From the UHGV virus genome UHGV-1410056: a DNA stretch of 40,444 bases; one strand, given 5' to 3'. Position 1 is the stretch's first letter, and the number at the start of each line of letters is the position of its first letter. A program made the translations under genes and the position numbers. This document shows, in pieces, positions 5,540 through 24,802 of the stretch. Source of the stretch: a virus. The notes beneath the pieces are model-generated. The model did not search any database. It had not been told where the DNA came from and worked only from the letters and a program-made list of their open reading frames with translations.

Positions 5540-6124
5540 TTATTGTTTGCTTTTTTCGTTCTGGTTGATGACAAATTCAATGTAACTTTCGATCTTTGCT
5601 TTCTCGGTTTCGGGTAACAATGCGTAGCGTGAGCGGTCATAGTTGATAGTCGCAGGGTCGTGCGGGTGAATCAGTAGTTCATATCCGTGACGCCCGAATG
5701 CGGATGCAACATTCTCCAGGGTGGAAATGGAAACGCTGACCTCATTGTTTAACAGGCGGCTGATTGTCACCTGGGCGACGCCGGATGCGCGGTGAAGTTT
5801 TCCCTGTGTTGAAAGGTCGCGGCTTTCGCTCATCCAGCGTTCCAGGTTGTGAGCCGCCAGCTGACCTATATCGCTCGGGCCGACAGGCTGAAAACCCTCC
5901 TGAGAAAGCGAACGATCAATATCAAGCCAGTTACGGGGTTTATTGGCGGCAGCTTCAATTTTTCGTGCAACCTGGTCGCCGATAACCTTCTTGCCAAGAG
6001 CCCAGCGGTTTACCAGATTTGCCTGAGTTCCAAGTTTTTCTGCCATCCGCGTCTGAACACCATTGAATTCACGGTCGATCAAGTCGTTGAGATTTTGCCT
6101 GCGGACGTCCTGGATACTTTTCAT
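5540..6124 (-). CDS. CI-like phage repressor with two HTH (XRE-type) domains and no S24 peptidase domain
   Basis: 194 aa; two HTH-like segments (TRMAEKLGTQANLVNRW... and ASGVAQVTISRLLNNE...); no Ser/Lys autocleavage module; divergent from Cro-like gene; no SD before ATG (possibly leaderless). Confidence 0.7.
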   Translation of the reverse strand: MKSIQDVRRQNLNDLIDREFNGVQTRMAEKLGTQANLVNRWALGKKVIGDQVARKIEAAANKPRNWLDIDRSLSQEGFQPVGPSDIGQLAAHNLERWMSESRDLSTQGKLHRASGVAQVTISRLLNNEVSVSISTLENVASAFGRHGYELLIHPHDPATINYDRSRYALLPETEKAKIESYIEFVINQNEKSKQ

Positions 6125-6179
6125 TTTCTGGAAAATCGCCTCATATATGAATCAGTAGATGATTCAATTTAAAGCAATA

Positions 6180-6242
6180 TTACCCAACAGGTAAATGCAC
6201 CTCATAGGTAACTATCCTTGATTTTTGTTACCTTATGGGTGA
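6180..6242. promoter_or_regulatory. Putative OR region: three adjacent operators (6180-6194 perfect; 6197-6211 GCACC variant; 6228-6242 GGTGA variant)
   Basis: Lies between divergent repressor and cro-like genes; candidate rightward promoter TTGTTA-17-TATTAT overlaps the third site. Confidence 0.6.
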
Positions 6243-6278
6243 ATATTTATTATCTGAAATAAATATCAGGCAATAGCT

Positions 6279-6509
6279 ATGAGCGATAACGGACATTTCG
6301 ATTTCAAAAAGCACTGGCTTGCACTTACTCCGGATGAGCGTGAAGCCTTCGCACAGGAAGCCGGAACGACGAGTCACTATATCCAGACTCACTTAACAGG
6401 CAAGCGCAAAATGCCAGGTAAAGTATTGATGAATGGGCTTTTTAAAGCCTGTAAAACAAGACAATGGCTGCGCTCAAAAGCAGAACTGGCATACTTCTTC
6501 TACTCATGA
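6279..6509 (+). CDS. Cro/YdaS-like small HTH regulator
   Basis: 76 aa; divergent from repressor; HTH-like segment DEREAFAQEAGTTSHYIQTHLTGKRKMP. Confidence 0.55.
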   Translation: MSDNGHFDFKKHWLALTPDEREAFAQEAGTTSHYIQTHLTGKRKMPGKVLMNGLFKACKTRQWLRSKAELAYFFYS

Positions 6510-6530: not shown

Positions 6531-6556
6531 AGACCGCCATCCGGCGGTCTTTTCAT
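6531..6556 (+). terminator. Terminator-like hairpin after the cro-like gene
   Basis: Stem AGACCGCC (6531-6538) / GGCGGTCT (6543-6550) followed by TTTCAT; followed by a GCACC-N5-GGTAA variant operator at 6565-6579. Confidence 0.5.
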
Positions 6557-6657: not shown

Positions 6658-6870
6658 TTGAAGATAGTAACCAGAATGGAGGCCGCAAAAGCCGGGTTAA
6701 ATCGCTATTTCACAGGAAAGCGGTGCCGTCACGGCCATCTCTCTGAAAGGTATGTTCTGAACGGAACATGTGTTGAATGTGCAATGAATAGCGCCAACCG
6801 CCATCGTAATGAATTTGCTTGTGCACTAAAGAGTGCAAGAGGGGAAACCTATGGCAAGCAGCTGGATTAA
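6658..6870 (+). CDS. Hypothetical small Cys/His-rich protein at the cII position
   Basis: 70 aa, TTG start with AGGGGCGG upstream; Cys/His cluster (CRHGH ... CVEC) suggests zinc binding; sits between cro-like and O-like genes. Confidence 0.4.
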   Translation: MKIVTRMEAAKAGLNRYFTGKRCRHGHLSERYVLNGTCVECAMNSANRHRNEFACALKSARGETYGKQLD

Positions 6871-7681
6871 GGTTGAAGTTATCACTCCTGATAAACCTGA
6901 AATTTTTCAGATAGCAGAAATTCTGGGTATTGATCCAGATGCTGTTCTTGGAAAGCTGGTTCGTATATGGGCATGGGCTGACCAGCAAACAATAGACGGT
7001 AACGCTGGCAGCGTTACAAAAGGAGTACTTGATAGACTCGCTTTTATTACAGGATTTGCTGACGCCCTCATTAGCGTCGGATGGCTTGCTTATCATGACG
7101 GCAAACTAATTCTTCCAAACTTTGAGCGACATAATGGAGAATCATCGAAAAAACGTGCACTTACGAATAGAAGAGTGGCAGAGCATAGAAAACGAGTAAC
7201 GCAAAAAGTAACGCCAACAGCGTTACAAAAGGAGTTACCAGAGGAAGAGGAAGAGGAAGATATATATAAAACCCCACACATAGCGCACGTGCGCGAGGGT
7301 GCTCCGACCAGTGAAGCGAACAGTACGCCGTTGCAGGTGGCAGAACCTGAATTTCTGGATGGCCTGAGTGAACCCATCGGGAAATTTCCGATGACAGATG
7401 GCTGGCTACCGTCGCCAGATTTTCGGCGGCGTGCTGCGCTGTGGGGAACGGCCCTGCCGGAACCGGAATTTACACCTGCTGAACTTGCTGCATTCCGGGA
7501 TTACTGGATGGCTGAGGGCAAAGTGTTCACGCAGGTTCAGTGGGAACAAAAATTCGCCAGGCACGTAAATCATATCAGGGGAAAATCAAAAAATGCCGGG
7601 AAAAGCGATGAGCTTGACTGGAATAACACTGACTGGATAGAAGGGGTGTGGGATGAAATCAACTCCAGAACTTCTCAATGA
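6851..7681 (+). CDS. Replication initiator / replisome organiser (O-like), with DnaT-like C-terminal region
   Basis: Start ATG 6851 with GAGGGG SD; acidic EEEEEED linker; immediately upstream of the lambda-P-like gene; contains iteron-like DNA repeats. Confidence 0.55.
   Translation: MASSWIKVEVITPDKPEIFQIAEILGIDPDAVLGKLVRIWAWADQQTIDGNAGSVTKGVLDRLAFITGFADALISVGWLAYHDGKLILPNFERHNGESSKKRALTNRRVAEHRKRVTQKVTPTALQKELPEEEEEEDIYKTPHIAHVREGAPTSEANSTPLQVAEPEFLDGLSEPIGKFPMTDGWLPSPDFRRRAALWGTALPEPEFTPAELAAFRDYWMAEGKVFTQVQWEQKFARHVNHIRGKSKNAGKSDELDWNNTDWIEGVWDEINSRTSQ
6999..7235. repeat. Iteron-like repeats inside the O-like gene: GTAACGC heptamers (6999, 7196, 7208) and inverted GCGTTAC (7011, 7220), plus 18-bp direct repeat CAGCGTTACAAAAGGAGT (7009-7026 and 7218-7235)
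   Basis: The 18-bp repeat is read in different frames in its two copies, so it is a DNA-level element rather than a protein repeat; candidate origin. Confidence 0.5.
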
Positions 7682-8429
7682 GTACGATCGCTTACGTGAG
7701 CATGGTGTTGCTGTGCATGAAGAGCGGCGTGACAGCAATGGCAAAAAGGAGCAGGTTGCTAGAATTTTCAATGAACTATTTGTCCAGTTACAGGCTGCAT
7801 TTCCTGCAAGCGTTTCGACCATAAGGGAGCAGAACAAACTTAATGAATTCCGTAAGCAATGGATGCTTGCGTTTCTGGAGAATGGGATCACTACAATGGA
7901 ACAGGTTAACGCTGGTATGCGCCACGCCCGCGCCAGTGAATCTCCGTTCTGGCCGTCGCCAGGGCAATTCATCAAGTGGTGCAAAGACAGCAAGATGGTT
8001 CTTGGCGTCACCATTGACGATGTGATGGCGGAGTTTCACCGGTACAGCAAGGAAAAAAGTTTATATCCTGGTGGTCCCGAAAGATTCCCGTGGCGGCATC
8101 CGGTTATGTACTGGGTCGTATGTGATACCCGTCGTGCAATGTATCAGCGCCAGCTTAGCGAGAGTGAGGTTGAGAAACACGCGCGCAGGCTGCTCGATGA
8201 TTGGGCGAAAAAGGTGGCTTCCGGACAGCAGATACCCGATCCGGTGATCAGCATACAGGCAAAGCCAGAGCCCATGAGTACACCTCCGGACACAGGGAGA
8301 GACGTTTACCATCCACCAGGGCGAAGTTTCGGGTGCATGCCTAACGCCGCCACCCTTGGGGGAATAACACCGGCGCAGTGGCTGATGGAGGAATACAGGC
8401 GGGGAAAGGCGGCAGGATTTATCAAGTAA
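7653..8429 (+). CDS. Replication protein P-like DnaB helicase loader
   Basis: 258 aa; long segment FPASVSTIREQNKLNEFRKQWMLAFLENGITTMEQVNAGMRHARASESPFWPSPGQFIKWCKD closely matches the lambda P family. Confidence 0.8.
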   Translation: MKSTPELLNEYDRLREHGVAVHEERRDSNGKKEQVARIFNELFVQLQAAFPASVSTIREQNKLNEFRKQWMLAFLENGITTMEQVNAGMRHARASESPFWPSPGQFIKWCKDSKMVLGVTIDDVMAEFHRYSKEKSLYPGGPERFPWRHPVMYWVVCDTRRAMYQRQLSESEVEKHARRLLDDWAKKVASGQQIPDPVISIQAKPEPMSTPPDTGRDVYHPPGRSFGCMPNAATLGGITPAQWLMEEYRRGKAAGFIK

Positions 8430-8891: not shown

Positions 8892-8952
8892 ATCGACGAT
8901 CTTTTTAGTTATCAATGTAATCAATAAGTTATGTGGATAAGCGAGGGTAAAG

Positions 8953-9525
8953 ATGGAAAGTAATATCAAAGGGTTAGTTGCCGCCGGGCATGAGATGGCT
9001 TCGGAACTGAAAGCAGAATGTGGTGCCGTTGATATGCGCAGTGTGGCAAAGCTGATCAGCGATTTGGCAACGCAACTGGAAGTGCAACTGGTGCGTGCTA
9101 ATGCGCTGGCCGAAGACCAGCAGAAAGCGATTGAGTCAATTAAGCAGGCTGATGCGGCTGTTAAGTTGGCACACGAGAAGTTTTCGGCGCTGGCAGCGGA
9201 GAATGCGGCAATGCATGAAACTATTGAAGCCGTTCGCAGTGTTGCGGATAACTCCAGTGGAATTGCCGGATGGCATTTGAATGGCGATATCGCTACATGG
9301 GAAGAGATTCTTCCTGAAATTAACGATATCGAAACCCAAGCCACCGACGCTTTCCTGTCTGAAGTGCGGGCGCAGGGCGTGGAGATGCTGGCAAAAAATC
9401 ATCAGAGTATCGTCAATGCACTTAAGGGAGATTCTTTATTTTCTGATGGTGAATGCCGACATGCAGCTATTGTTTCCGCAGCTGTATATTTCGCTGCAGA
9501 GCTTCGCAAAGGAGGCAACCAGTGA
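8953..9525 (+). CDS. Hypothetical protein (190 aa)
   Basis: ORF with GAGGG SD; Ala/Glu-rich; no recognised motif. Confidence 0.5.
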   Translation: MESNIKGLVAAGHEMASELKAECGAVDMRSVAKLISDLATQLEVQLVRANALAEDQQKAIESIKQADAAVKLAHEKFSALAAENAAMHETIEAVRSVADNSSGIAGWHLNGDIATWEEILPEINDIETQATDAFLSEVRAQGVEMLAKNHQSIVNALKGDSLFSDGECRHAAIVSAAVYFAAELRKGGNQ

Positions 9526-23799: not shown

Positions 23800-24263
23800 T
23801 GATCGATGTTCAAATTATTCCCGCAACCGAAGAGCATCTTCAGATGATTTTGCCGGATGTTCGTCAGGCTGATATTGACGAACTGTATGCGGTATCACTG
23901 ATGACTACCGAAGATGCGCTGCGTGTTGGTCTGCGTACTGCGACTATGGCCTGGTCAGGATTTGCGAACGGAGAACTGGTAACCATGTTTGGCGTATCTC
24001 CGGCGTCAATGATCGGTGGCAATGGTACGCCCTGGCTGGTCGGAACCAGCCGTATCGAAAAATATCAGAAGACATTTCTTCGCCACTGCCGCCCTGTATT
24101 GCAGCAGATGCTGGCAGTTTATCCGCGCCTGGAAAACTATGTCGACGAGCGAAACCATGTTGCCAAAGCATGGCTGCACTGGCTTGGATTCAGGCTTGAA
24201 GAAGCCGCGCCTTATGGTGCTCTTGGTCTTAATTTCCACAGATTTCACATGGAGAGAAAATAA
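23799..24263 (+). CDS. Hypothetical virion protein (154 aa)
   Basis: ATGA overlap with upstream gene. Confidence 0.45.
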   Translation: MIDVQIIPATEEHLQMILPDVRQADIDELYAVSLMTTEDALRVGLRTATMAWSGFANGELVTMFGVSPASMIGGNGTPWLVGTSRIEKYQKTFLRHCRPVLQQMLAVYPRLENYVDERNHVAKAWLHWLGFRLEEAAPYGALGLNFHRFHMERK

Positions 24264-24802
24264 TGTGTAACCCAGCCATCGCTTTGGTTGCCGTCACAGT
24301 GGCATCCACAGCCGCGTCAATGTACAGCCAGAGCAAGCAGGCAAAATACCAGTCAGCCATAGCTGATCGGAATGCTGAAATTGCTGAAGCTCAGGCACAG
24401 GATTCAATCAATCGTGGGAATATTGAAGCGGATCAGCGTCGTCGTGAAATGCGTCAACGCTCAGGCACTGCGGCGGCCACTATGGGGGCTACCGGTGCGG
24501 AATTAAGTAGCGGAACAGCTCTTGACGTTTTTGCGGATAATGCTCAGTTCGGCACTCTTGATGCGTTAACGACAGTGAATAATGCTCAGCGTGAGGCATA
24601 TGGGTATCAGGTTCAGGGAATGAATGCTCAGGCACAGGGGGCTGCTGCTCAGTCGGCTGCTAAATCATCGATGACCAGCACTTTGTTAACGGCACCACTA
24701 AAAGCATACGGTGCATACCAGATGGGCGGCGGAACGTGGAGCCCGTTCTCTCAGAAGGCTGCGCCGATTTCTGCTGCTGTTGGCACTCCAACCGGTCGAT
24801 AA
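24263..24802 (+). CDS. Internal virion protein (T7 gp14-like by composition and position)
   Basis: 179 aa; N-terminal hydrophobic segment then Ala/Gln-rich region. Confidence 0.4.
   Translation: MCNPAIALVAVTVASTAASMYSQSKQAKYQSAIADRNAEIAEAQAQDSINRGNIEADQRRREMRQRSGTAAATMGATGAELSSGTALDVFADNAQFGTLDALTTVNNAQREAYGYQVQGMNAQAQGAAAQSAAKSSMTSTLLTAPLKAYGAYQMGGGTWSPFSQKAAPISAAVGTPTGR

Follow-up and report, generated by a model that had tools for sequence, protein, structure and literature searches.

Inverted half sites and a purine-rich tract inside a phage initiator gene: a probable replication origin of the lambda type

The window analysed here is the 40,444-nucleotide (nt) stretch of the virus genome UHGV-1410056. 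It contains a replication initiator gene (6851–7681, + strand, 276 amino acids (aa)) in which GTAACGC/GCGTTAC heptamers are found in two clusters (6999–7238), followed directly by a polypurine and A/T tract (7240–7271). The heptamers are probably half sites bound by the N-terminal domain of the initiator itself and, together with the tract, probably form a replication origin of the lambda type. Comparison with homologues establishes that the sites are strongly selected as DNA and that they co-evolve as a set. From these comparisons we infer the identity of the binding protein, the unwinding and the origin activity.

Half sites and selection on the DNA

The + strand carries GTAACGC at 6999, 7196 and 7208; two further copies, at 7011 and 7220, are on the − strand and read GCGTTAC on +. 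Thus five of the 11 copies of the heptamer in the whole window fall within 228 base pairs (bp), at 6999–7226. Shuffles of the whole window give a mean of 3.8 copies, and 0 of 100 reached 11. The Poisson probability of five or more copies in 228 bp is ~4e-10, or ~7e-8 when corrected for all positions. When any strand-symmetric heptamer present five times in a 240-nt stretch is considered, this cluster stands alone in the window and none of 200 block shuffles reached five. A sequence-only reading of this DNA had pointed out five heptamers in about 230 bp; its positions and strings are correct, and the clustering is beyond chance.

The same reading reported an exact 18-bp repeat read in two frames, and this also holds. 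The 18-mer CAGCGTTACAAAAGGAGT has exactly two copies in the window, at 7009–7026 and 7218–7235 (0.02 expected). The copies are 209 bp apart (209 mod 3 = 2), begin at codon positions 3 and 2, respectively, and encode ..SVTKGV.. and ..ALQKEL... The 18-mer is exact as a repeat, but it proves to be a clade-specific part of a larger unit. A repeat finder gives a unit of 28 bp on the + strand, with copy 1 at 6999–7026 and copy 2 at 7208–7235, each holding one copy of the 18-mer; 25 of the 28 positions are identical. The core of the unit is a 19-bp palindrome, GTAACGC-N5-GCGTTAC, which occurs twice in the window.

Palindrome 1 (cluster 1) reads GTAACGC-TGGCA-GCGTTAC (6999–7017) and is invariant, wobble positions included, in 47 distinct relatives. 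Palindrome 2 (cluster 2) reads GTAACGC-CAACA-GCGTTAC (7208–7226), lies in the linker-coding region and is in a different frame from palindrome 1. Extra half sites flank palindrome 2 in a 12-bp register. A direct GTAACGC is found 12 bp to its 5′ side (7196–7202, +), which is GAAACGC in other clades, and a sixth, degenerate outer half site, GAGTTAC (7232–7238, −; 6/7), is a perfect GCGTTAC in many relatives. Cluster 2 as a whole reads GTAACGC-AAAAA-GTAACGC-CAACA-GCGTTAC-AAAAG-GAGTTAC. The heptamers had been described as iteron-like; they are half sites of palindromes and not direct iterons. The layout of a plasmid-type iteron origin, with tandem direct units of 17–22 bp at regular spacing, is not found here, because the 7-bp half sites are inverted, two direct copies being followed by two inverted ones, and only two full palindromes are present, 209 bp apart.

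The last half site is followed by a polypurine run (7240–7260, +) that consists of a tandem repeat, AGAGGA × 3.5, and encodes EEEEEE. With 21 nt it is the longest homopurine/homopyrimidine run of the window, and it is proposed as part of the unwinding region. The A/T run TATATATAAAA (7261–7271) and then CCCC follow. Within the gene region, stability is lowest in the 20-mer that begins at 7251, which ranks in the window's top 0.17%. CAGAG directly adjoins the last half site in every homologue, and the polypurine run and A/T come next. Some homologues have the purine run as (GAGGAA)n, which encodes EEEEEE, and others as (GAGAA)n, which encodes EKRREEK; because both keep the purine run, it is the run that is conserved and not the peptide. 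Among otherwise near-identical relatives, the copy number of GAGGAA ranges from 2 to 5 (7240–7260 and the equivalent positions in L001–L084), and such slippage alters both the length of the poly-Glu linker and how far the A/T run is from the last half site. A perfect 12-bp palindrome just 3′ of the A/T run, GCGCACGTGCGC (7282–7293), was left out of the origin as probably not functional, because it is variable in close relatives (GCGCACGCGCGC, GCACACGCGCGC) and missing from other clades.

To follow the sites through relatives, the gene was sampled from Enterobacter phage BUCT554, Klebsiella phage ST11-OXA245phi3.2, a Rac-like element and 80 viral contigs. Both palindromes are present in all of these records at fixed positions, gene nt 149–167 and 358–376. 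Conservation was scored over the first 393 nt of the gene in 47 distinct sequences with 77–100% mutual identity. The palindrome arms are invariant save for two substitutions, each a single change in a single sequence (2/47) and both in palindrome 2. All arm wobble positions taken together show one substitution in the 47 sequences. In codons with a constant amino acid, the arms have six wobble positions and all six are invariant, compared with 6–12% of the background degenerate wobble positions (78–89 positions; mean variability 0.26–0.29), a difference with P ~4e-6 to 7e-8. At site 2 the N5 spacer is hypervariable, even as protein (P/Q/R/L then T/A/P/S/I/V), while the VT and AL flanking it are constant across the 47 sequences. 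Fixed arms around a free centre are what one expects of a site where a dimer binds and touches both arms.

Ten more distant homologues, with 40–71% protein identity, were taken with their DNA. An unbiased strand-symmetric hexamer count over gene nt 101–430 in 12 homologues always places the top word in two clusters, at gene nt ~143–198 and ~338–404, with direct copies first and inverted copies after them. GTAACGC is also the top word in L085, L086, L088 (a planctomycete genome), L093 and L094. The word is GTGACGC/GCGTAAC/CGTCAC in L089, GTTGCGG/CCGCAAC in L090, GTTACGC or GTTGCGC in L091 and GTAGACGC/GCGTCTAC in L092, and in these four it is changed in both clusters together.

The reading frame of the sites is not constant either. 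In the window gene, cluster 1 has its heptamers in codon phase 2, and those of cluster 2 are in phase 1 (VTPTAL). Cluster 2 is in phase 2 (SNAxSVT) in the Rac-like element (L003), L093 and L088, and it uses both phases inside single genes in L085, L086 and L094. Extra half sites appear as 12-bp (4-codon) insertions, e.g. ECNA in the Rac-like gene and NAGS in P0083.

Selection on the repeats at the DNA level is demonstrated, because the arm wobble positions are invariant, the frames differ within and between homologues, and changes of motif are concerted in both clusters. The sequence-only reading had argued for such selection from the two frames, and the homologues now support it. All homologues examined carry repeats, with replaced motifs matched between the sites; a homologue without repeats or compensating repeats was not found among them. 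The frame independence and the concerted change point to one trans-acting protein that recognises all of the sites.

The initiator protein and its mosaic module

The initiator matches phrog_2509, 'replication initiation protein', with an expectation value (E) of 9e-130. It consists of a winged-helix-like N-terminal domain (aa 1–118), a disordered acidic linker (aa 120–140) and a DnaT-like C-terminal domain. The Pfam DnaT model PF17948 matches aa 179–249 (E = 1.6e-18), and DnaT chains in the PDB, 6aep and 4ou6, match at E ~1e-20. The NCBIfam DnaT equivalog model NF002770 gives 92.4 bits against a cut-off of 201, with the match limited to aa 171–252. The GenBank/RefSeq name 'primosomal protein I' for this gene is misleading, because the DnaT match is to one domain only, the N-terminal half is unrelated and the gene stands in a phage initiator-loader context.

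The N-terminal 135 residues show no Pfam or NCBIfam model in the window protein, and no Pfam model in 28 family members. Phage_rep_O (PF04492) has no match in the window protein or in the 28 family members, and hhalign against lambda O gives a probability of 0.2; lambda O itself matches PF04492 at E = 6e-36. An AlphaFold2 model of aa 1–135, made from a 28-sequence alignment, has a predicted local distance difference test (pLDDT) score of 73. It displays helices at 16–25, 29–46, 57–64 and 69–76, a beta-hairpin at 80–87, a long helix at 96–118 and a disordered tail at 120–135, i.e. a helix-turn-helix with a beta-hairpin. The fold resembles the winged helices of replisome-organiser, DUF1376, DnaD-like and RepA_N proteins, with weak structural scores; the best Pfam match to the replisome-organiser/DUF1376/DnaD-like type has E = 0.11, in one family member. 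In the model, palindrome 1 corresponds to the loop G50–T56 between helix 2 and helix 3, a position in keeping with the insertions that this place tolerates. The disordered linker is specified by cluster 2 and the purine tract.

The domain is widespread. An exhaustive phmmer search yields 7,212 clusters (50% identity) with the N-terminal domain at E ≤ 1e-3. The peptide footprint of the sites, NAxxVT, is found in 127 of the 145 representatives first returned (among the best 150), and at least twice in 63 of the 145.

A gene for a helicase loader of the lambda P family overlaps the 3′ end of the initiator gene (7653–8429, +; PF06992, E = 5e-56; 39% identical to lambda P). The initiator gene had been described as O-like; the DNA-binding domain that it encodes is not a homologue of lambda O.

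The initiator gene is itself a mosaic. In BLAST comparisons the match of the N-terminal module ends at 7275 and that of the C-terminal module starts at 7262, which places the junction at ~7262–7275; in alignments, divergence begins right after the A/T run and CCCC. The N-terminal domain with its sites is found joined to differing C-terminal domains, and the downstream partner differs as well: lambda P in the window and BUCT554, an IstB/DnaC-like protein in the Rac-like element, L089 and L090, DnaB in L091 and AAA_25 in L086. The initiator gene is the sole component common to all loci. In the Rac-like element (MN652886) the N-terminal domain is 72% identical and the palindromes are at matching places, followed by a DnaC-like YdaV. 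The C-terminal part of YdaU from the Rac prophage of Escherichia coli K-12 shares 83% identity over 119 residues with the protein of the Rac-like element. K-12 YdaU has a DUF1376 domain at its N-terminal end and no GTAACGC sites; the equivalent place has ATGTTCAAACA in three copies, ahead of an A/T-rich tract. The DNA-binding domain and the sites are thus exchanged together. These comparisons of loci show the N-terminal domain, sites and tract to be inherited as one mosaic module.

In K-12 ydaU the three copies of ATGTTCAAACA (L096:3005–3078, gene nt ~386–459) are two direct and one inverted, and the A/T-rich tract that follows them leads into CCCCCCC. Copies of GCTGATGTT(C/G)AA are found further 5′ in this gene, at L096:2763–2774 and 2848–2859. 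This layout parallels the two clusters of the window and suggests a shared architecture in DUF1376 initiators.

The module of N-terminal domain and sites is present in at least 123 of 5,426 complete E. coli genomes, always on the chromosome. The genes are annotated there as 'DnaT-like ssDNA-binding domain-containing protein', and an origin is annotated in none of these genomes.

A candidate origin and other explanations

Initiation at these sites may proceed as follows. Dimers of the winged-helix-like N-terminal domain would bind the 19-bp palindromes at 6999–7017 and 7208–7226 and spread cooperatively to the flanking half sites 11–12 bp apart (7196, 7232). The array to be filled would be G(T/A)AACGC-5-GTAACGC-5-GCGTTAC-5-G(A/C)GTTAC, in which A-tracts serve as spacers, and a DNA loop may bridge the two clusters ~200 bp apart. 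The nucleoprotein complex would then destabilise the polypurine/A-T tract (7240–7271), and the DnaT-like C-terminal domain, with its lambda O-like tail, could recruit the lambda P-like loader and host DnaB to the opened DNA.

A variant of this proposal makes the loop itself the basis of the origin. Initiator dimers on both clusters would bridge and wrap the intervening DNA, and the melted element would be the conserved polypurine (GAGGAA)n or (GAGAA)n repeat rather than a classic A/T element. This variant is possible but rather unlikely. If it is correct, it would represent a widespread origin architecture without a Pfam model, undescribed in the literature searched, in ~7,200 clusters (50% identity), whose motif specificity has been diversified by a protein co-evolving with sites in its own coding sequence.

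Several observations weigh against a lambda-type origin at these positions. The sites are in two clusters ~200 bp apart and not in four contiguous iterons as in lambda. The distance between the clusters ranges from 198 to 233 bp among homologues, a variation that does not preserve helical phasing. At 11 bp, or ~30 bp counting the purine tract, the A/T run is short, and when stability is calculated in windows of 40–60 bp, the tract at 7240–7271 is not the least stable part of the gene. In the Rac-like relative a third palindrome is found just 5′ of the start codon, at 14–32 bp, which fits autoregulation as well as an origin.

In an unlikely alternative, the palindromes are operators only, through which the initiator or another regulator autoregulates or blocks the replication operon, with the true origin elsewhere. 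Palindromic sites are operator-like in form, L093 shows a half site at −21 in addition to the third palindrome of the Rac-like relative, and lambda-type initiators are tightly dosed. However, the sites lie 150–390 nt inside the coding region and not at a promoter, and no sigma-70-like promoter is predicted near them. The constant junction with the polypurine/A-T tract, whatever the peptide encoded, has no obvious role in repression, and the window contains no other comparable repeat cluster. Operator and origin roles are compatible and not mutually exclusive.

It is very unlikely that a different protein binds the sites, either a host factor or a phage protein such as the 70-aa Cys/His protein encoded just upstream (6658–6870), for a purpose other than initiation such as packaging, partition or recombination. 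The GCGTTAC half site in the upstream small open reading frame (ORF) of L001, L002 and their relatives would agree with such a binder, and the mosaic junction beside the sites could suggest a recombination hotspot. But the upstream neighbours vary, with YdaS and YdaT homologues in Rac-like loci and other genes in metagenomic loci, and the motif travels with the N-terminal domain of the initiator regardless of the rest of the phage. A host factor is hard to reconcile with a motif that is identical in enterobacteria and in a planctomycete genome, yet differs among closer relatives. Another binder is unlikely because the initiator gene alone is common to all loci. The motif is also not found in the repressor/cro intergenic region (6125–6278), and a role as immunity operators was rejected on this result.

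A repeated peptide, an RNA hairpin or antisense terminator, and chance are hardly credible and are largely refuted by the comparisons above. NAxxVT does occur twice in many family members, but the two window copies encode different peptides in different frames with wobble positions fixed, and a peptide repeat was rejected on these grounds. On the minus strand, a consensus scan marks both palindromes as terminator-like hairpins, one of them followed by TTTTT. For a hairpin, complementarity would suffice, yet two separate sites retain one and the same arm sequence and change it together; directly repeated half sites cannot pair, and the tail of site 1 is not T-rich. A minus-strand terminator or RNA hairpin was rejected because the arms are the same at separate sites and because of the direct half sites. 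Chance is excluded by the shuffles and the Poisson statistics.

A DnaA-dependent origin was also considered and rejected, as no DnaA box with at most one mismatch is found inside the initiator gene. One perfect DnaA box, TTATCCACA, is present on the − strand at 8932–8940, at the 5′ edge of the ORF at 8953–9525, a number close to that expected by chance in 40 kb.

Over the region of the sites, the window shows 99.9% identity to Escherichia phage vB_EcoP_ZX5 (Uetakevirus), 99.4% to HEMP4 and 98% to TL-2011b. Upstream of the initiator gene are a divergent repressor gene (5540–6124, −), a cro/cII-like ORF (6279–6509), a terminator-like hairpin and the small Cys/His ORF, and this gene order is that of a lambdoid early-right operon. 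The hairpin (6531–6550) is a strong one, with 8 pairs of which 6 are G-C and a T run behind them, and lies between the cro/cII-like ORF and the replication genes. It is placed like tR1, which would imply control of the replication operon by antitermination or read-through. The small ORF (6658–6870, 70 aa, phrog_1081, function unknown) is directly 5′ of the initiator gene and displays the Cys/His pattern C-R-H-G-H ... C-V-E-C. In L001, L002 and relatives the homologous ORF has one GCGTTAC, ~118 bp 5′ of the initiator start; the window copy is without any. Elsewhere in the window, words of the AATGCTCAG type with a TGCTCAG core are found four times at 24541–24652, spaced 42, 42 and 21 bp apart and in frame throughout in the ORF at 24263–24802, and look like a peptide repeat rather than a DNA signal.

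With a probable lambda-type origin inside the initiator gene, these results locate the likely start of replication in temperate Uetakevirus-like phages and prophages, including ZX5, HEMP4 and TL-2011b. The gene is at present annotated only as 'primosomal protein I', 'DnaT-like' or 'hypothetical', and the misleading annotation can be corrected. A large initiator family without a Pfam model gains a clear motif and testable coordinates. The sites are in addition a clean natural case of overlapping codes, in which a palindrome outlasts changes of frame, insertions and changes of peptide and co-evolves with the protein that it helps to encode. The module also offers candidate narrow-specificity replicons and incompatibility determinants.

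Comparison with known systems

In lambda, four dyad-symmetric iterons followed by ACAAAAGAAAAAAGAAAAGATTATT on the coding strand are situated in the middle of gene O (PMC7466680), and two iterons with the A/T-rich tract are described as enough for unwinding (Dodson et al. 1986, as cited in PMC7466680). The window resembles lambda ori in several respects. The sites are within the initiator gene, where the interdomain linker is encoded (PMC7466680), they are dyad-symmetric with central or flanking A-tracts, and directly behind them comes a stretch with a purine-rich coding strand and a high A/T content, the lambda counterpart being AAAAGAAAAAAGAAAAGATTATT. The next gene is again a P-family loader. 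As in lambdoid O proteins, the N-terminal domain and the origin form one exchangeable specificity module. In Stx phages two extra iterons add 13 residues to O (PMC7466680), and in the present family, likewise, extra sites cost extra amino acids in steps of four codons.

There are also differences from lambda. The N-terminal domain is not Phage_rep_O, and the motif GTAACGC-N5-GCGTTAC is unrelated to ATCCCTCAAAACGAGGGA of lambda. One of the two clusters is inside the coding sequence of the DNA-binding domain itself, and the A/T tract is shorter than that of lambda and is dominated by the (GAGGAA)n purine repeat. Homology to lambda O was not found beyond a weak match of the C-terminal tails, LDWNNTDWIEGV in the window initiator and LDLTNTDWIYGV in lambda O (pairwise E = 0.001, 55 residues, window 7570–7678). 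This match suggests that the P-family loader contacts the tail of the initiator and that lambda O may itself have a DnaT-like C-terminal domain. E. coli DnaT is similar to the initiator in its C-terminal domain and differs in the N-terminal half and in gene context.

Rac is reported to carry an active origin, oriJ (PMC3945230; Potrykus et al. 2000, as cited in PMC11014345). K-12 Rac differs from the window in the DUF1376 domain of YdaU and in its ATGTTCAAACA repeats, and as both domain and repeats differ, K-12 oriJ would be of another specificity type. Primers named oriJ (PMC3945230) correspond to a 155-bp piece of ydaV in the Walker A region (L096:3741–3895) and were not used as evidence. The product of these primers is ~0.7 kb 3′ of the ydaU repeats and displays nothing visibly origin-like.

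Initiators of the replisome-organiser, DnaD-like and DUF1376 types share with the window the location of sites inside their own gene and a helicase or helicase-loader gene downstream. For example, the oriL bound up with G38P of SPP1 is inside gene 38. Membership of these families is not apparent at the sequence level, and their motifs and hosts are other than those found here. A literature search gave no description of a GTAACGC-type origin and nothing relevant for the motif string.

The analogy with lambda ori drawn in the sequence-only reading holds at the level of sequence, with dyad sites within the gene, the adjoining purine/A-T stretch and the P homologue in agreement. The corrections to that reading concern the heptamers, which are half sites of palindromes, the 18-mer as part of a larger unit, and the DNA-binding domain, which is unrelated to lambda O. 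Judged from the sequence, the arrangement most likely works by the logic of lambda ori, with a true lambda P relative as loader, an unrelated DNA-binding domain and motif, and sites split into two clusters.

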